A stretch of DNA of 64,000 bases from Candidatus Aminicenantes bacterium (GCA_037447475.1 JBBIGP010000004.1:7713-71712); one strand, 5' to 3'; positions 3,162 to 48,574 are shown, counted from the stretch's first letter. The notes: generated from the sequence alone by a model not told the origin. Numbers and translations: made by a program.

Positions 3162-5079
3162 GGTCCCCGTCGTCGTCTTCATCGGCCAGCCGAACAGCGG
3201 CAAGAGCACCCTGTTCAATTCCATCGCCGGGCACAAGGCCGAAACGTCGAATTTCCCGGGCACGTCCATCCAGCATACCCATAGCCGCGTCAACATCGAG
3301 GGCCGGCTCCTCGACATCGTCGACCTGCCCGGCACCTACACCCTCTGCCCCACGGACCGGGCCGAGCAGGTCGTCCTCTCCCACCTTTTCTCCGAGAAGC
3401 CCGACCTCGTCGTCAACGTCGTCGACGCCTCGACGCTCAGCCGGAGCCTCGAGCTGACGCTCGAGCTCGTCGAGCTCGGGTACCCCCTGGTCGTCGCCCT
3501 CAACATGATGGACCTGGCGGAGAGGAAAGGCATCGAGGTCGACGCCGCGAAGCTCGGGTCCCTCCTCGGCGCGCCGGTCGTCCCGATCATTGCCGCCTTC
3601 GGCCGAGGGATCAGGGAGCTCCTGGAACAGGTTTTCTCGGTCCTGGACGGCGGGCAGCGCCTGCAGGGGATACAGGGGTCCGGGGACGTGGAGGACATGA
3701 TCGCCGAGATGGAAAGGCTTGTCCCCCCGGGCTTTCCCATCGTCGGGAACCGCCGGTTCACGGCCGTCAAGCTCATCGAGGCGGGCGGGATGGCCTGCGG
3801 CGACCTGATCGGCGAGGTCGACCCGGAACTGGCCTCCATTCTGGCCGGCATCCGAAAGGGACTCGAAGAGAGCCGCGGCGCGCCGGCCTACGAGATCATC
3901 TCCGCCGAACGCCACCACCTGGCCATGAAGTTCTTCGAGGAGTCGTGCCGCGTCCTGCGCGGCAGGCGCCTGACCTGGGAGACCAAGGCCGACGCCGTCC
4001 TCATGCATCCCGTCCTCGGCTATCTCATCCTGATCGCCGTGTTCCTGGCGTTCTTCTTCATCATCTTCAAGGTCGGCAACCCCCTCGAGGCCCTTCTCCT
4101 CGGGCCCTTCGAGGGCCTCAAGGACACGCTGGCCTCGCGCCTGGGCGACGGATTGGTTTTCTATCTCGCCGAAGGGCTCGTCCAGGGCGTGGGCGGGGGA
4201 GCGGCCATCGTCCTGCCCTATTTCCTCCCCCTGCTGTTCCTGATGGCCCTGCTCGAGGACCTCGGGTACCTGGCCCGGGCCGGCTTTCTCCTGGACACGT
4301 TCATGCACCGCATCGGGCTGCACGGGAAGTCGGTCTCGCCGTTCATCCTGGGCTTCGGTTGCAACGTCCCGGCCATCGTCTCGACGCGCATCCTCGAGTC
4401 GCACCGGGACCGGGTCCTGACTGCGCTGCTCATCCCGTTCATCCCGTGCGCCGCCCGGACGACGATCATCCTGGCCCTAGTGGCCTCCTATCTGGGCCCG
4501 CTCTGGGCCATGGGCTTCTATGTGGCCAACATCGCCGTCGTCGCCCTGGTCGGGGGCCTCCTCAGCCTGTTCCTCAAGGAGCCCTCGCCAGGGCTCATCC
4601 TGGAGATCCCGTCCCTCAAGGCGCCGCGGCCGGGCTCCGTTCTCCGCAAGACATGGCTCCAGATCCAATCGTTCATCAAATTCGCTTGGCCCATCCTCAT
4701 CGCCGGCAGCCTCGTGCTCAGCCTGATGGGTTTTTTCGGCCTCGACCGGCTGGTCAACGACATCCTCGCCCCTCTCGTTTCCAAGGGCCTGGGCCTGCCC
4801 CGCGAGCTGGGGGTCACCCTCGTTTTCGGCTTCCTGCGCAAGGAGCTGTCGCTCATCATGATGCTCCAGGCCCTGGGCGTGGAATACCAGGACCTGCTCT
4901 CGGCGATCACCCGGGAGCAGATCATCGTCTTCACGGTCTTCATCAGCTTTTTCATCCCCTGCCTGTCCACGTTCGCCATCCTCTGGAAGGAGATCGGGAA
5001 GAGATGGGCCTTCGTTTCGGTCGGCCTGAGCGTGTCCGTGGCTTTGGCACTGAGCTGGCTCGTCCGTTTGGTGATCTGA
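3148..5079 (+). CDS. feoB: Ferrous iron transporter FeoB (G-domain plus membrane domain)
   Basis: GQPNSGKSTLFN P-loop, DLPGTY, then a polytopic membrane domain. ATG 3148 has a GAAGAGG SD; the track start at 3133 is a TTG. Confidence 0.95.
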   Translation: MSGPRVPVVVFIGQPNSGKSTLFNSIAGHKAETSNFPGTSIQHTHSRVNIEGRLLDIVDLPGTYTLCPTDRAEQVVLSHLFSEKPDLVVNVVDASTLSRSLELTLELVELGYPLVVALNMMDLAERKGIEVDAAKLGSLLGAPVVPIIAAFGRGIRELLEQVFSVLDGGQRLQGIQGSGDVEDMIAEMERLVPPGFPIVGNRRFTAVKLIEAGGMACGDLIGEVDPELASILAGIRKGLEESRGAPAYEIISAERHHLAMKFFEESCRVLRGRRLTWETKADAVLMHPVLGYLILIAVFLAFFFIIFKVGNPLEALLLGPFEGLKDTLASRLGDGLVFYLAEGLVQGVGGGAAIVLPYFLPLLFLMALLEDLGYLARAGFLLDTFMHRIGLHGKSVSPFILGFGCNVPAIVSTRILESHRDRVLTALLIPFIPCAARTTIILALVASYLGPLWAMGFYVANIAVVALVGGLLSLFLKEPSPGLILEIPSLKAPRPGSVLRKTWLQIQSFIKFAWPILIAGSLVLSLMGFFGLDRLVNDILAPLVSKGLGLPRELGVTLVFGFLRKELSLIMMLQALGVEYQDLLSAITREQIIVFTVFISFFIPCLSTFAILWKEIGKRWAFVSVGLSVSVALALSWLVRLVI

Positions 5080-11527: not shown

Positions 11528-11604
11528 GGGTGGTCCTCCCGTCTGGCCGGTCTGAACGGTCCACTGCGATTATAGGGGGGCCTCCGGAGCCTGTCAACGC
11601 TGCT

Positions 11605-11632
11605 TTGAAACGCCCGGGAAATGTGCTAGAAT
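11605..11632 (+). promoter_or_regulatory. Candidate promoter of tRNA-Gly (TTGAAA-N16-TGcTAGAAT, extended -10)
   Basis: TTGAAA at 11605-11610, TG at 11624-11625, TAGAAT at 11627-11632, 14 nt before the mature tRNA 5' end. Same -35 hexamer as the tRNA-Leu promoter. Confidence 0.5.
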
Positions 11633-11646
11633 GCGGCTTTCCGTGA

Positions 11647-11721
11647 GCGGGCATAGCTCAATGGTAGAGTACCGGCTTCCCAAGCCGGGTGTTGTGGGTT
11701 CGAGTCCCATTGCCCGCTCCA
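11647..11721 (+). tRNA. tRNA-Gly (anticodon CCC), CCA encoded
   Basis: Cloverleaf folded by hand: acceptor GCGGGCA/TGCCCGC, anticodon stem CCGGC/GCCGG with loop TTCCCAA, T-arm GTGGG-TTCGAGT-CCCAT, discriminator T, CCA. Confidence 0.9.
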
Positions 11722-11728
11722 TTTTTTT

Positions 11729-11819
11729 AGAGGGGGTCAAATCTCCACTTATTAAATTTTGGACGGCGCGTCGACCATGAACGAAAAATTCGATAATAAG
11801 TGGAGATTTGACCCCCTCT
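11729..11819. repeat. AT-rich long-stem hairpin element, copy 1
   Basis: Left arm AGAGGGGGTCAAATCTCCACTTATTAAATTTT. The right arm reverse-complements to AGAGGGGGTCAAATCTCCACTTATTATCGAATTTTT. 26 bp of perfect stem and a ~23-nt GC-rich loop. Near-identical element at 46831-46925. Confidence 0.75.
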
Positions 11820-12613
11820 GGTCTTTGATCGTTGAGCCGGAACCCCTCCCCGGGGCCCGGAACATGGCCGTCGACGAGCATCTTTTCTTCTTGGCTCAGG
11901 CCCGGCCGCGAACTTTCCTGCGCTTCTACCGCTGGGAGCGGCCGACGGTCTCCCTCGGCTTTTCCCAAGAGGCGGACAGAGTCGCCGACCTCGATTTCTG
12001 CCGGAGGAACGGCATCGATGTCGTCCGGAGGCTGACCGGCGGCAAGCTCGTCCTCCATCACCGAGAGGTGACCTACTCCGTCGCCTCTTCGGACACCGCC
12101 CGCTTTCGCGAGACGGTGCGCGACTCCTACCGGCTCATCTCCCGGGCCCTGCTCGCGGGTCTCGAGCTCCTGGGAATCCCCTCCCGGATGGCCGGCCCGG
12201 CCCCGCCGTCCTACGCCCGGGGGACCATGCCCTGTTTCGCCCACGCGGCCCGCGATGAGATCGAGAGCGGCGGCCGCAAGATCATCGGAAGCGCCCAGAA
12301 AAGGCTCGGGCCGGCCTTTCTCCAGCACGGATCCATCCCCCTCGAGGACGACACCGCCCTCCTGGCGGCCGTGTCGCGTCCCGGCGGAGCGGGGCCCGGC
12401 GGAGGAATGACCTCCCTCTCCGAGGCCGCCGGCCGCCCCGTCGATTTCGCCGCCGCCGTGTCCGCCCTGTCCCGTGGCTTCGCCGATTCTTTCGGGGTGG
12501 AGCTCGTCCCGTTCGCCCTCGGTCTTGCCGACGAGAGCGCCGTCTCCGCCCTCCGATCCGCCAGATACGGCGACGAGGCCTGGACCCTGCGCCGCCCGCC
12601 CGGGCCTCGTTGA
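11777..12613 (+). CDS. Lipoate-protein ligase / octanoyltransferase family protein (BPL_LplA_LipB domain)
   Basis: NMAVDEHLF...FLRFYRWERPTVSLG...GGKLVLHH...GRKIIGSAQKR (catalytic-Lys region). Start is uncertain. ATG 11777 lies in the loop of the hairpin element; TTG 11825, just after the element, would give the family-typical ~14 residues before NMAVDE. Confidence 0.8.
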   Translation: MNEKFDNKWRFDPLWSLIVEPEPLPGARNMAVDEHLFFLAQARPRTFLRFYRWERPTVSLGFSQEADRVADLDFCRRNGIDVVRRLTGGKLVLHHREVTYSVASSDTARFRETVRDSYRLISRALLAGLELLGIPSRMAGPAPPSYARGTMPCFAHAARDEIESGGRKIIGSAQKRLGPAFLQHGSIPLEDDTALLAAVSRPGGAGPGGGMTSLSEAAGRPVDFAAAVSALSRGFADSFGVELVPFALGLADESAVSALRSARYGDEAWTLRRPPGPR

Positions 12614-41915: not shown

Positions 41916-43406
41916 TCAGGCTTTGGCAAGGGCATCCTGGGCGGTCTTCCGCCTTCGGTAGGCGGGAATGATCTTGAGACAGATGCCGATCAGGACGGCC
42001 ACGGCGAAGACGTTGAGGAGAGCGTAGTTTTCGATGTGAAGTCCGAGAAGGTGGACGCCGATGAGGACGGCCAGCGCTGAAAGCGTGTCTCCCCCCCTGA
42101 CAAAGAAGGTGTCGATAGCCGCCTTGGCTTTATACTTCTCCTCCCGCTTGGTGACCAGGAACAGCGCGGCCTTGGTCGTATTCTGAAGGGAATAGTCGGT
42201 GCCGTTCTCGAAGGCCTTGACCCAGCGGACGAGCACGAGAACGGCTCCGAAGGAAATCAGCGTGTAGCCGCCCAGGGCGATGAGAGGAAGGAAGAGCAAG
42301 GCCCCTCCCACGCCGATCCACTTGAAGATGCGCGAGACCAGGAAGAGCTGGATGATGAGGGCGATCAGATTGGTCAGGAACTGGTAGTTCATGAATGCGC
42401 TGTGAATGGCCTTGCTCTCCGTTCCGGCGGGCAAGGCCGGGGACGCCGCCGGGCGCTTCCGATCGGCTCCATCGTCGGGAAGCGGGACGAGCCGGCCCCG
42501 CGGGCCTCCCGCGGCTCCATCGGCTATCGACTCCCTGACCGTGACGGCGGTGATGATATATTCCCCGGTCGCATTGATGAAATTATAGAGGCCGATCATG
42601 GCCGCGATGAGAAGAAGGTAGCGGCTCTTGAAGATCAGCCGGAACCCTCCTCCCGCTCTTAGCGGCTGTTCACTGGCGACGCTTTCCTCCTCGGCCTTGG
42701 CCAGGCCCTTTTCGCGGGCCTCGCGGGTGTCCCGGACGGCCCGGTTGTGGATATGCCAGGCCAAGGCGATGCAGAGCAGCAGGATGAGGCCCGCGATGAG
42801 CATGAGCTCGTATTCCCAGTTCTCCCCCAGGATATCCCTCAACCGCTTCATGATCGGCAAGGTCGCGACGAGCCATCCGAGCGTGGCTCCCAGGGCGACG
42901 AGCGGAAACGTGCGCTTTCCGACCTCGTCCGAATAGAGGTCGTTCGCGAAGCCCCAGAACTGGGCGATCACGAAATAATTGAATATGCCGATCCAGATGA
43001 AGAACATGATCCCCATGGGCTTGACGGCCATCCCGCTCAAGTTGAGGAAATAGAAGACGACGAGGTTGGAGATGAAGAATGATGTTGTCCAAGTGATAAG
43101 GATATGCCGAGGCACCCTGGAAGCGAGGCGACTGAATGCCTTGATGACGAAGATGAAGAGAACGGCTTGGGCCCCGCTCAGGTAGCTCTTGACTTGAGGG
43201 GAACCCTGGTCAACAAGGAGAAGCGACTCGCGCAGCGGCTTGAGGATGTAGTAGGCCAGAAGCAAAAGAAAGATGTTGAGGGCGAGCAGGAGGGCCTTCA
43301 GGGCTTCCCCCTTGCGGACGTCGGCGAACAGCCTGAGGAAGCCGTAGCCGATGTTCGAAGTAGCGCCGCCCGACGGCGGGATCCCCCCGCGGATTCTATC
43401 CCCCAT
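41916..43406 (-). CDS. TLC/NTT-family (ATP/ADP translocase-like) nucleotide transporter
   Basis: 496 aa, polytopic. LLLAYYILKPLRESLLL; IAQFWGFANDLYSDEVGKRTFPLVALGATLG; DYSLQNTTKAALFLVTKREEKYKAKAAIDTF. These match remembered Rickettsia Tlc motifs (FWQFANQI..EAKRFY; KYSLFDATKNMAYIPLD..KGQAAVE). Confidence 0.85.
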   Translation of the reverse strand: MGDRIRGGIPPSGGATSNIGYGFLRLFADVRKGEALKALLLALNIFLLLLAYYILKPLRESLLLVDQGSPQVKSYLSGAQAVLFIFVIKAFSRLASRVPRHILITWTTSFFISNLVVFYFLNLSGMAVKPMGIMFFIWIGIFNYFVIAQFWGFANDLYSDEVGKRTFPLVALGATLGWLVATLPIMKRLRDILGENWEYELMLIAGLILLLCIALAWHIHNRAVRDTREAREKGLAKAEEESVASEQPLRAGGGFRLIFKSRYLLLIAAMIGLYNFINATGEYIITAVTVRESIADGAAGGPRGRLVPLPDDGADRKRPAASPALPAGTESKAIHSAFMNYQFLTNLIALIIQLFLVSRIFKWIGVGGALLFLPLIALGGYTLISFGAVLVLVRWVKAFENGTDYSLQNTTKAALFLVTKREEKYKAKAAIDTFFVRGGDTLSALAVLIGVHLLGLHIENYALLNVFAVAVLIGICLKIIPAYRRRKTAQDALAKA

Positions 43407-45477: not shown

Positions 45478-46830
45478 GTGACGAAAGGACGGTGGACCGT
45501 GCGTTTCGGATCGTTCGTTGGTGTCATAGGGCTTGTGGGAATGTTTGTCGTTCTTGCCGGGGTTTCCGGCTGCAGGGGAGGCGGGCGGCCGGTCCCCTCC
45601 GAGGATGTCGCTGTGACGGTCAAGCCGGGCGTCGAGGTCTTCCTCGAGAGATATGTCGGGCTCGTGGAGGGCAAGCGCGTCGGCCTGATCACCAACCCGA
45701 CGGGAGTGGATGGGCGCCTGCGGTCGACGGTGGACCTGTTCGCCGGGAGCCCCGATATCGACCTGGTCGCGCTCTATGGCCCCGAACACGGCGTCAGGGG
45801 GAACGCGCAAGCCGGCGAATACGTGCCGTTCTACATCGACGACAAGTACGGTTTGCCCGTTTTCAGCCTCTACGGACAGTCGTTCAAGCCCCCGCCGGGC
45901 ATGCTCAAGGACATCGACGAGCACATGCGGTCGTTCGACACGGACATCGCCGGGAAGGTCCCCGAGAAAGCCATGGTCGAGAGCGTCGACGTCCTCGTCT
46001 TCGACGTCCAGGACGTGGGGACGAGGGTCTACACCTATATCGCCACCATGGCTTACGCGATGCAGGCGGCGGCCGAGAGCGGCATCGAGGTCATCGTCCT
46101 GGACCGCCCGAACCCCGTCAACGGCGTGGACATGGAGGGGCCGATCCTGGAGTATCCCGCATTCAGCTCGTTCGTCGGGCTCTATCCCGTCCCTGAGCGC
46201 TTCGGCATGACGATGGGCGAGCTGGCCCTGCTCTTCAACGACAGGTTCCTGGAGAAGAAGGCCCGTCTGACGGTCGTCGCCATGGAGGGCTGGAAGAGGC
46301 CGATGTGGTTCGACGATACGGGACTGCCCTGGATCATCCCTTCGCCCAACATGCCGACCCTCGACACGGCCACGGTCTATCCGGGCCAGGTCTATATCGA
46401 GGGGACGAACATGTCGGAAGGCCGGGGTACGACCCGGCCGTTCGAGCTGTTCGGAGCGCCTTGGATCGACGGCCACGAGCTGGCGAAAAGGCTCAACGGG
46501 CTCGGCTTGCCGGGCGTCGTCTTCCGGGAGACCTGGTTCACGCCGTGGTTCTCCAAGTTCCAAGGGCAGCTCTGCGGAGGCTGCCAGGTCCATGTCACGG
46601 ACAGGGAGGCATACCGGTCGTTCGGGACCGCGCTGCACGTCATCAAGACGGTCCGGGACATGTATCCGGACAAGTTCGCCTTCCATGCGGACTACTTCGA
46701 CAAGGTCATGGGGACGGACAAGGTCCGCCGGGCTCTCGAAGCGGGGGAGACCGTCCCAGCGATCCTCGAGAGACTGGAGCCCGGGCTGGCCGCCTTCGCC
46801 GCGCTCCGCCGCCCGTATCTGCTCTATTAG
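45478..46830 (+). CDS. DUF1343 family lipoprotein (NamZ-like exo-beta-N-acetylmuramidase family)
   Basis: Lipobox LAGVSGC. GLITNPTGVD, ALYGPEHG, VLVFDVQDVGTRVYTYI, IVLDRPNP and PSPNMPT are typical DUF1343 motifs. GTG start (45478, or 45499). Confidence 0.85.
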   Translation: MTKGRWTVRFGSFVGVIGLVGMFVVLAGVSGCRGGGRPVPSEDVAVTVKPGVEVFLERYVGLVEGKRVGLITNPTGVDGRLRSTVDLFAGSPDIDLVALYGPEHGVRGNAQAGEYVPFYIDDKYGLPVFSLYGQSFKPPPGMLKDIDEHMRSFDTDIAGKVPEKAMVESVDVLVFDVQDVGTRVYTYIATMAYAMQAAAESGIEVIVLDRPNPVNGVDMEGPILEYPAFSSFVGLYPVPERFGMTMGELALLFNDRFLEKKARLTVVAMEGWKRPMWFDDTGLPWIIPSPNMPTLDTATVYPGQVYIEGTNMSEGRGTTRPFELFGAPWIDGHELAKRLNGLGLPGVVFRETWFTPWFSKFQGQLCGGCQVHVTDREAYRSFGTALHVIKTVRDMYPDKFAFHADYFDKVMGTDKVRRALEAGETVPAILERLEPGLAAFAALRRPYLLY

Positions 46831-46925
46831 CAAGAAGGGGTCAAATCTCCACTCATTAAATTTTCAGCTGCCATGTCGTCGGGAAATCGAAAAATTTAAT
46901 GAGTGGAGATTTGACCCCCTCTTGT
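46831..46925. repeat. AT-rich long-stem hairpin element, copy 2
   Basis: Left arm CAAGAAGGGGTCAAATCTCCACTCATTAAATTTT. The right arm reverse-complements to CAAGAGGGGGTCAAATCTCCACTCATTAAATTTTT. About 33-bp stem with one mismatch and a 25-nt loop. Starts on the base after the DUF1343 stop. Confidence 0.75.
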
Positions 46926-47002: not shown

Positions 47003-48574
47003 ATGGCGAACAAGACCCTTCACTACGCCCTGGTCAACCCGCTGTCCAAGTTCCTCGATAAGCCGGCCGCCGACTTCACCCGGGCCGACCTGCTCAGGGT
47101 CATCGAGGACCGGCAGATCGAGCGCATCACCTTCCACTACACGGCGGTCGACGGCAAGCTCAAGGAGCTCAAGATCCCGGTCGCCGGCCGGTCCCAGATC
47201 GAGGCCATCCTGGCCGAAGGCGAGCGGGCCGACGGCTCCTCGCTCTTCAAGGGCATGGTCGATATGGCTCTGTCGGACGTCTATATCGTGCCCCAGTACC
47301 GGTCGGCCTTTTTCAATCCGTTCGACGAGGGCAGCCTGGACTTCGTCTGCCGCTATCTGACCAAGGAGGGCGACCTCGCCCCGTTCACCCCGGACAACAT
47401 CCTGGCCCGGGCCGCTGCGATGTTCCGCCGGACGACCGGCCTCGAGTTCAACGCCCTGGGCGAGCTCGAGTTCTTCCTGCTCCTCGAGCCGTCGGACCGG
47501 AGGTACCCGGCCGAGCCTCAGCGCGGCTACCACGGCTCGTCTCCCTTCGTCCGCGGCGGCCCCATCCTCGACGAGATGCTGCGCCACATCGCCCGCGTCA
47601 CCGGGGCCGTCAAGTACGCCCACAGCGAGGTCGGCCTTGTGGACAGCCTGAAGAGCGACCTCGACGAGATCCGCGGCCGCCGGGCCGAGCAGATGGAGGT
47701 CGAGTACCTGCCCAAGCCCGTCGAGGACATGGCCGACGACCTGGTCATCGGCCGCTGGATCATCCGCAACACGGCCTACCGCCACAACGCGATCGCTACC
47801 TTCGCCCCCAAGCTCGAGGAAGGGGTGGCCGGCAGCGGCCTCCATTTCCATCTCGAGTTCACCAAGGACGGCCGCAACGTCATGGCCGGCCCCGACGGCA
47901 AGCTCACCGAGGCCGCCCGCAGGCTCGTCGGAGGCCTTTGCGAATACGCCGACTCGCTGACGGCTTTCGGCAACACGGTCTCTTCGGCCTACCTCCGCTT
48001 GGTCCCCCACCAGGAGGCCCCGACCCGCATCTGCTGGAGCGACCTCAACCGCAGCGCCCTCATCCGGGTGCCCCTCGGCTGGCACGGCCTCGGAAACCTG
48101 GCCCGGCGCGTCAATCCCCAAGAGACGGGGGAATTCGTCGACCCGCGCGGCGGCCGCCAGACCGTCGAGATCCGCAGCCCCGACGGCAGCGCCAACATCC
48201 ATCTGACCCTGGCCGGCATCTGCATGGCCGCCAACTGGGCTTTCGCCTCCGACCAGGACCTCCACAAGGACCATGGCCCTCTCGACCTCGCCGAGCGCCT
48301 CTACGTCAAGGGCAATATCTTCGCCGACAAGGAGCTCCTCAAGCGCCTGCCGACCCTGCCGTCGAGCTGTGTGGAATCGAGCCGCCTCCTCCTCAAGAAG
48401 CGGGCGCTTTACGAGCGCGACGGGATCTTCCCCCCGAGCGTCATCGACTGCGTCGCCCGCATGCTCCAGGCCGAGGACGACGAGGCCATGAACAAGAAGC
48501 TCGCCGGCCTGCCGGCCCACGAGCGGCTTCACGAGATCCGCAAGATCATGCACAAGGACCTCCACAAGCATTGA
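47003..48574 (+). CDS. Glutamine synthetase family protein
   Basis: Start ATG 47003 with strong SD. Beta-grasp N-domain (ITFHYTAVDGKLKELKIP) and catalytic domain (GELEFFLL, AFGNTVSSAYLRLVPHQEAP, ALIRVP). The track ORF extension from 46592 crosses the repeat and is spurious. Confidence 0.85.
   Translation: MANKTLHYALVNPLSKFLDKPAADFTRADLLRVIEDRQIERITFHYTAVDGKLKELKIPVAGRSQIEAILAEGERADGSSLFKGMVDMALSDVYIVPQYRSAFFNPFDEGSLDFVCRYLTKEGDLAPFTPDNILARAAAMFRRTTGLEFNALGELEFFLLLEPSDRRYPAEPQRGYHGSSPFVRGGPILDEMLRHIARVTGAVKYAHSEVGLVDSLKSDLDEIRGRRAEQMEVEYLPKPVEDMADDLVIGRWIIRNTAYRHNAIATFAPKLEEGVAGSGLHFHLEFTKDGRNVMAGPDGKLTEAARRLVGGLCEYADSLTAFGNTVSSAYLRLVPHQEAPTRICWSDLNRSALIRVPLGWHGLGNLARRVNPQETGEFVDPRGGRQTVEIRSPDGSANIHLTLAGICMAANWAFASDQDLHKDHGPLDLAERLYVKGNIFADKELLKRLPTLPSSCVESSRLLLKKRALYERDGIFPPSVIDCVARMLQAEDDEAMNKKLAGLPAHERLHEIRKIMHKDLHKH

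Follow-up and report, generated by a model that had tools for sequence, protein, structure and literature searches.

What kind of element is a pair of long, AT-rich hairpins in the DNA of an uncultured Aminicenantes bacterium, and what acts on it? The window (the whole 64-kb stretch of DNA that was analysed) contains two copies. Copy 1 (11729-11819, unstranded) consists of a left arm on the plus strand (11729-11754; AGAGGGGGTCAAATCTCCACTTATTA), a loop (11755-11793) and a right arm (11794-11819, minus strand) that is the reverse complement of the left arm. Copy 2 (46831-46924, unstranded) has its left arm (CAAGAAGGGGTCAAATCTCCACTCATTAAATTTT) at 46831-46864 on the plus strand, its loop at 46865-46890 and its right arm at 46891-46924 on the minus strand. 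The arms of copy 1 are 26 nt long and 100% complementary, those of copy 2 are 34 nt long and 97% complementary, and a ranking of repeats placed the two copies first and second among the inverted repeats of the whole window. The 16-mer GGGGTCAAATCTCCAC occurs exactly four times in the window, once in each arm. The inverted repeat that ranks third (42286-42425; arms of 25 nt, 80% complementary, with 90 nt between them) has no sequence relationship to the hairpins.

Both copies are far more stable than shuffled sequence. Folded as RNA they reached -51 to -57 kcal/mol (z -8.9 to -12.3), folded as DNA they gave z-scores of -10.6 and -11.7, and none of 200 shuffles folded as well. The GC content of the elements is 0.43-0.44, falling to 0.375 in the lowest 80-nt window, compared to 0.66 for the full 64 kb. 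At one stem position copy 1 has a T·A pair (ACTTATTA/TAATAAGT) and copy 2 a C·G pair (ACTCATTA/TAATGAGT), while the similarity of the two loops is at the level of shuffled sequence, that is, they are unrelated. The description in an earlier note on this DNA, of two hairpins at these positions forming AT-rich islands in GC-rich DNA, with long, nearly perfect stems, one stem difference present on both arms and loops with little in common, was thus borne out. The note had also assigned the arms to no named REP/BIME, Correia, ERIC or attC family, and the GTAG/CGTC REP tag is absent from them; a scan of the window against Rfam at gathering thresholds returned two tRNAs only and no family matching the hairpins.

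Searching species-representative genomes for a 20-nt arm pattern gave 49 loci, nearly all of them in three MAGs of Aminicenantes, VGJC01 (V), JAWOHF01 (J) and CAYREO01 (C). The hairpins extracted, 49 in number with a median length of 84 nt, were distributed as 19 in V, 15 in C, 13 in J and 2 in the window (W), so that 13-19 copies were found per MAG, a moderately repeated family; lone arms were present besides. The hairpins sort into 29 orthology groups. The window represents a fourth, related genome, in which the flanks of both copies are 78-87% identical to V and J. The ortholog of copy 1 (L003:4080-4158) also follows a tRNA-Gly(ccc) gene, and copy 2 has positional orthologs (L020:4315 and L009:5644) with an unrelated loop and a different left boundary. 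Since both copies are orthologous to hairpins at the same sites in other genomes, a local duplication is ruled out, and the dispersed family that had been proposed from the two copies is real. Each member is an inverted dimer of a unit of ~30 nt, AAGA[A/G]GGGGTCAAATCTCCACT[T/C]ATTAAAT, and the two units are separated by a non-conserved spacer that is usually about 30-47 nt long. Collapsed forms were also seen: a 34-nt perfect palindrome at L050:3784-3819 (AAGAAGGGGTCAAATCATGATTTGACCCCTTCTT) and 50-nt forms without most of the inner stem and the loop at L015:6393-6442 and L031:1357-1407.

The arm sequence AAGAAGGGGTCAAATCTCCACTTATTAAAT also forms the terminal inverted repeats around a gene for a 321-aa protein in three MAGs. 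At L021 (V), L017 (J) and L039 (C) the arms lie ~1.07 kb apart with one 321-aa ORF between them, and at all three loci the flanking repeat has exactly the sequence of copy 1's left arm. The protein has an HUH/Y1 nuclease domain at its N-terminus and matches Pfam Y1_Tnp at 36.2 bits (cutoff 23), and its best NCBIfam match, at 63 bits and under the 80-bit cutoff of that model, is REP_Tyr_transpos (REP-associated tyrosine transposase). The residues H60-Y61-H62 and Y119-x-H-x-N-P-V (Y119 to N123-P124) are invariant in 33 homologs. The top PDB fold for an AlphaFold (AF2) model of the protein (pLDDT 84) is 4ER8, E. coli TnpAREP bound to a REP hairpin (E = 1.6e-5, TM 0.71, rmsd 2.4 Å), ahead of the TnpA structures of IS608 and ISDra2. 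The C-terminal ~70 residues resemble the helix-turn-helix of DnaA domain IV (fold 3PVP, 3pvp_B, TM 0.73; profile E = 7e-4). A single-sequence phmmer search of PDB returned nothing relevant; the matches came from profile and fold searches. The family has >6000 relatives, many of which carry the JGI label "REP element-mobilizing transposase RayT". Among the fetched loci there was one transposase hit per MAG. By tblastn there is no transposase gene within the 64-kb window, and we infer from the three relatives that the window's own genome carries one.

RAYT-like genes with long terminal inverted repeats have been named TIRtrons and their enzymes TIRYTs (Di Nocera et al. 2013, BMC Genomics 14:522, PMC3733652). 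TIRtron repeats often start with GGGGWSAS and are moderately abundant as dispersed singles, dimers and groups, and the Acidobacteria have a sharply defined, distinct group of TIRYTs (PMC3733652). Most TIRYTs belong to TnpAREP subclass 2.1, which has a DnaA_C/HTH-like C-terminus and for which no associated REP-like repeats near the gene were reported (Quentin et al. 2018, BMC Genomics 19:475, PMC6006769). Four of the five features that define the TIRtron/TIRYT type fit here, and the fifth, GGGGWSAS, agrees at 7 of 8 positions, the arm start GGGGTCAA having A instead of S at the last. As in TIRtrons, a RAYT-like Y1/HUH gene is flanked by long terminal inverted repeats and not by REP hairpins, the repeat has a GGGG-type start, the protein ends in a DnaA_C/HTH-like domain, and dispersed repeats occur in moderate numbers, here 49 dimers plus lone arms in four genomes. 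Apart from that one motif position, the differences are the host, an uncultured Aminicenantes lineage for which a literature search found no link with TIRYTs, and the dominant form, which here is an inverted dimer making a hairpin of ~90 nt.

Because a RAYT-like Y1/HUH gene has these arms as its terminal inverted repeats, the hairpins belong with the TIRtron/TIRYT (REPIN-like) class. They are a new family of an already known type of small bacterial repeat and not a new class of element. We consider it highly probable that they are repeat dimers of a TIRtron/TIRYT (TnpAREP subclass 2.1) and that they work in the manner of a REPIN–RAYT system, with copy 1 an inverted dimer of the TIRYT terminal repeat. 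The earlier note had offered a choice between a MITE-like and a structured-RNA family. "MITE-like" is fair in the broad sense that the elements are dispersed, non-autonomous and palindromic, and the second label does not apply. The note had further reasoned that arms matching the terminal repeats of a known insertion sequence would make this an ordinary MITE; the arms do match the terminal inverted repeats of a transposase gene, but that gene encodes a RAYT-like Y1/HUH enzyme at one locus and is not an insertion sequence of the DDE type.

The transposase gene lies at one syntenic locus in eight genomes, with amino-acid identities of 51-100%. The order at this locus is SIS_2-like gene, TIRYT, KamA, the neighbours being a ~730-aa gene with a faint SIS_2 match and a KamA-type radical-SAM gene, and five orthologs of 51-65% identity (P0003, P0028, P0008, P0020 and P0040) have these neighbours in common with the three MAGs. 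The two repeats around each gene agree with one another over 15-34 nt and differ between lineages, as in AAGAAGGGGTCAAATCTCCATTCATTAAAT, AAGAAGGGGTCAAATCTTCATTCTGCCACTTTTT, ACGGGGTCAAACCTCCACTTTTAC, GGGGTCAAACCTACACTTTTC and, at L132, GGGGTCAAACCTTAATTCTTATAATT. Perfect flanking inverted repeats of 21-34 nt were found at seven of eight loci (L021, L017 by eye, L050, L051 and L132-L134); the perfect run at L039 is just 15 nt. The L132 repeat equals the arms of hairpins L061, L063 and L064, which were found independently at the site downstream of NamZ on other metagenome contigs, so in that lineage the hairpin arms equal the gene's own repeats. At L050:9866-9915 a second hairpin with another arm variant (GGGGGCAAACCTACACTTTTC…) lies between the left terminal repeat and the transposase start, and its arm is similar to the repeats around the gene of a different lineage (L133).

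Relatives of copy 2 provided a record of DNA turnover at a single site. In the window, the gene for NamZ, an exo-beta-N-acetylmuramidase (45478-46830, plus strand), ends in a TAG stop codon (46828-46830) that directly abuts copy 2, and a glutamine synthetase gene (47003-48574, plus strand) lies downstream. Comparison of 80 orthologous NamZ loci, over the sequence from the NamZ stop codon to the glutamine-synthetase promoter, identified this site as a recurrent insertion hot spot among relatives. It is empty in L059 and L108 (junction TACTGA/ATTGCTTCGG, the slash marking the insertion point) and filled by elements with lineage-specific arms in, for example, L055, L058, L071, L076, L079 and L089. 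Target-site duplications, for which the earlier note had advised a search, were not found between empty and filled NamZ sites (for example, TACTGA/GGGGG…CCCCCTCTTG/ATTGC). L052, the closest relative of the window, retains only an end remnant, TATTTGACCCCATCT, and L060 retains AGGGGCTTGACTCCTTCTT. Partial arm starts stand beside full elements at the NamZ site in L057, L062 and L065 and occur at other sites in L001 (~4955-4985), L025 (~4895-4915) and L046 (reverse complement). These partial duplicates are 11-20 nt long and directly upstream of the full elements (for example, TAAGAGGGGGTCAAATGA/TAAGAGGGGGTCAAATC), and in L062 flank and arm start are duplicated together (TACTGAGGGGG occurs twice). 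In another lineage a different palindromic family, AAGAACGGACCTGGTCTTCGCAA… and its complement (L056:~1560-1650), occupies the same spot downstream of NamZ, also with a partial arm-start duplicate.

Orthologous loops in V, J, C and W fell into two sets, those retained at 72-100% identity and those that are unrelated (about 50%, as for shuffled sequence). The loops of L004:2527 and L025:4914 are unrelated, as are those of L012:2910 and L029:4050, with arms and flanks conserved in both cases; likewise L009:5644, L020:4315 and the window copy at 46837 have conserved arms and flanks and wholly unrelated loops. Even between V and J, the closest pair of MAGs, about half of the comparisons showed an unrelated loop. 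An unrelated loop comes with a changed boundary or a changed state of the T/C position, which points to replacement of the whole element. Hypermutation confined to the loop is disfavoured, since replaced elements differ too in boundary, T/C state or adjacent remnants. In two ortholog groups the centre of the hairpin was inverted in situ with collinear flanks: L007:7072-7165 and L034:207-301 are identical at 45 of 46 nt after the centre is reverse-complemented, and the centre is inverted likewise between L010:1899-1991 and L012:4459-4552. At L019:952-2850 (J, JAWOHF01) an arm with half a loop and a full hairpin bracket a segment of ~1.8 kb with genes for an ECF sigma factor, for a putative anti-sigma factor and for a membrane protein. 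The equivalent site in V and C has a single hairpin.

Loops of paralogous hairpins are at most 0.65 identical, no more than random sequences; loops are shared just within a tandem pair in L002 and at the split site of L019. Cut-and-paste between sites is unsupported, as no loop recurs at a non-orthologous site of another genome. A search for donors of the replaced loops in about 0.7 Mb of genomic DNA, a test of low power, gave no match. The idea that loops are remnants of the transposase interior was dropped, agreement by eye being limited to the first few nucleotides beyond the arm.

In the mechanism that we propose, single-stranded DNA such as the lagging-strand template would let the two arms form a long hairpin, and TIRYT would act on it in trans. 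By analogy with related enzymes, what is recognised is probably this long single-stranded hairpin formed by both arms. TIRYT would cleave and rejoin the foot of the hairpin via a 5'-phosphotyrosine, as IS200/IS605 TnpA and E. coli TnpAREP do, and cleavage and rejoining could excise, re-insert or flip the element. Such an exchange at the foot would explain why insertion leaves no duplication, why end remnants occur and why an element can re-enter a palindromic site either way round. The gene, with its 1.1-kb "loop", would stay put, and its immobility fits because its repeats are too distant to fold readily. The HTH domain may hold the duplex stem. Any effect of hairpins at 3' ends on transcripts would be a secondary consequence.

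The positions of the hairpins raise a different possibility, namely that they are RNA elements selected by the host, transcribed 3'-end structures such as bidirectional terminators, processing sites or stabilisers, with a link to the transposase that is merely historical. Copy 1 begins 7 nt past the 3' end of tRNA-Gly(ccc) (11647-11721, plus strand), as the earlier note had observed, and 45 nt downstream of it is a gene of the LplA/LipB ligase family (11864-12613, plus strand; PF21948, 99 bits). In the L007/L034 ortholog group the hairpin is likewise just 3' of a tRNA gene, tRNA-Arg(tct). The hairpins are extragenic, frequently abut stop codons or tRNA 3' ends, many within a few nucleotides, and keep their positions across the four genomes. 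On both strands the GGGG/CCCC foot of the stem is followed by UUCUU. Some loops are also better conserved than their coding flanks; the L001 and L046 loops are identical at 36 of 36 nt with flanks of 72-87% identity, which hints at a constraint beyond mobility. The L001/L046 and L007/L034 loops contain small internal palindromes (TGATCAGG…CCTGATCA and GGAAA…TTTCC), and their conservation between V and C exceeds that of the adjacent coding sequence.

Scans for consensus terminators and promoters at both copies did not support this possibility, as neither whole hairpin was called. The sole terminator call, an imperfect stem of 6 pairs (GGGGGTCAAATCTCC; minus strand, 11816-11802), falls within copy 1's right arm. 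This stem is no more stable than shuffles, so the idea that an arm is a REP-like mini-hairpin was dropped, and a single arm alone folded no better than shuffles (z -0.55 and +1.17). An intrinsic terminator was rejected for the whole hairpins, which were uncalled and have a tail of just TTCTT after the stem, that is, a U-tract of only UUCUU. Among 24 groups that could be classified from stop-to-stop ORF calls, in which 5' ends are unreliable, flanking genes were convergent in 8, tandem in 11 and divergent in 5, a distribution that is not clearly non-random; by these crude calls about 5 of 24 groups would lie between divergent 5' ends, which counts against a role as 3'-end structures. Upstream of tRNA-Gly, two promoter-like sites stand back-to-back (region 11569-11632): a perfect TTGACA-17-TATAAT on the minus strand (11597-11569) and TTGAAA-16-TAGAAT with an extended TG on the plus strand (11605-11632).

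The stems themselves were examined in 57 arm pairs. Stem cells pair in 88% of cases and both sides have changed at 21 of 32 stem positions, values that none of 500 shuffles reached, and the pairing and double changes count in favour of an RNA element. When one copy per orthology group was scored for concordance (28 groups), the T/C position (position 18) was concordant in 25 groups and discordant in 3, compared to 12.6 discordant groups expected (Fisher p = 5e-5). In contrast, the A/G position beside GGGG (position 0, AAGA[A/G]GGGG) was discordant in 13 of 28 groups against 10 expected and shows no co-variation. The repeats that flank the transposase gene, 1.1 kb apart, carry the same both-arm changes as the hairpins, so covariation cannot separate the causes. 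Orthologs that disagree in T/C state have often had the entire element exchanged. Covariation cannot tell selection on the hairpin from co-evolution of two sites with a protein, from descent or from arm-to-arm conversion. The inference in the earlier note, that the compensatory change indicates selection on the hairpin rather than on a protein-binding half-site, is thus weak: the concordance of the T/C position agrees with it and the behaviour of the A/G position does not. The identical sequence moreover stands on both sides of a gene, with 1.1 kb between the repeats, where an RNA hairpin of this kind is not expected; the close relatives L052, L059 and L108 have an empty site or just a remnant; and no Rfam family matches. 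As the main explanation, a host-selected RNA element therefore appears unlikely. It is compatible with the TIRYT explanation as a secondary role, and where the hairpins are transcribed, a role at gene and tRNA 3' ends is possible.

The resemblance of the C-terminal domain to DnaA domain IV suggests another alternative, in which the arms are duplex sites bound by the DnaA-like HTH of a domesticated TIRYT and serve as operators or as nucleoid- or replication-related sites instead of mobile DNA. The gene is at a single locus and vertically inherited across deep divergence, the arm sequence is conserved even at a position whose pairing is not (position 0), and the arms and the gene's own repeats shift together between lineages, all of which speaks for a binding network. 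On the other hand, the invariant catalytic HUH and Tyr residues argue for retained nuclease activity, and the presence and absence states, remnants, inversions and replacements amount to DNA turnover at the sites. The best match of the arm to a DnaA box is 6 of 9 positions (TCTCCAC against TTATCCACA), which is within chance and is not conserved in other lineages. We regard a network of binding sites as improbable.

A variant of the TIRYT explanation concerns how the hairpins arise. Copy-and-paste of whole hairpins would yield shared loops, so the unshared loops of paralogs count against simple copy-and-paste. It is conceivable, though in our judgement improbable, that the hairpins are not made by copying at all, and that TIRYT acts at fixed sites as a domesticated single-strand recombinase, unlike the copy-and-paste of REPINs. 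Such an enzyme would repeatedly excise, invert or rebuild palindromes, with fold-back synthesis, or foreign single-stranded DNA captured between two arms, as possible routes. The frequent turnover at sites, the unshared paralog loops, the centres flipped in place and the partial arm starts beside full elements are what suggest this. The failure to find donors for replaced loops, and loops better conserved than neighbouring coding sequence, likewise leave room for a process less ordinary than copy-and-paste.

The terminal inverted repeats around a short non-coding body, and a doublet that folds as REPINs do, might recall an ordinary MITE of a DDE-type insertion sequence or canonical self-palindromic REP/REPIN doublets with the GTAG/CGTC tag, but either origin is very improbable given that empty and filled sites differ by no target-site duplication, that the sole gene found with the arm repeats encodes a Y1/HUH enzyme, that a single arm does not fold by itself, that the tag is absent and that spacers are unrelated among copies.

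Known systems resemble the TIRYT-linked hairpins in different respects. REPIN–RAYT systems (Bertels & Rainey 2011; Bertels et al. 2017) likewise combine a vertically inherited Y1 transposase, single-copy (here by one hit per MAG among the fetched loci) and flanked by the repeat, with non-autonomous extragenic inverted doublets that form long hairpins. REPIN spacers vary more than the REPs themselves, their stems often carry compensatory changes, and excision is asymmetric, leaving a few bp of one end behind (Bertels & Rainey 2011, PMC3116915); compensatory changes are common here as well, and the end remnants resemble that asymmetric footprint. The present arms differ in that they are not self-palindromic REP units and lack the GTAG/CGTC tag, the spacers of paralogs are unrelated and not just less conserved (in REPINs the doublet replicates as a unit, so its copies have a recognisable spacer in common), there are tens of copies and not hundreds, and the protein has an extra HTH domain. 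IS200/IS605 elements (IS608 and ISDra2 TnpA) share the HUH/Y1 fold, insertion without target-site duplication and a single-stranded DNA hairpin as presumed substrate. They have subterminal imperfect hairpins without terminal inverted repeats, whereas such repeats are present here, and they are multi-copy and horizontally mobile, whereas the gene here is at one fixed locus. Correia/NEMIS, ERIC and RUP elements are, like these hairpins, short, non-coding, intergenic and bounded by inverted repeats that form hairpins, but as MITEs they have DDE-type partners, target-site duplications and conserved internal sequence. What is new relative to TIRtrons is the fixed syntenic locus, the repeats that track lineages, the turnover at one hot spot and the inversion of hairpin centres in situ.

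For annotation, these hairpins should be masked as repeats, and labels such as predicted terminator or sRNA are unwarranted from sequence. A gene of subclass 2.1 is here tied to a dispersed population of hairpins in an uncultured lineage of phylum level (Aminicenantes/Acidobacteriota), which makes it a clean natural example. Its fixed locus over deep divergence, together with repeats that change between lineages, supports the view that such enzymes are domesticated and vertically inherited and not selfish. The series of empty, filled, remnant, flipped and replaced sites, along with the unshared loops of paralogs, bears on how palindromes are made and maintained, a question that REPs pose in general. 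If TIRYT does act as a recombinase at fixed sites, palindromes would arise and be maintained here in a way that differs from the copy-and-paste of REPINs.
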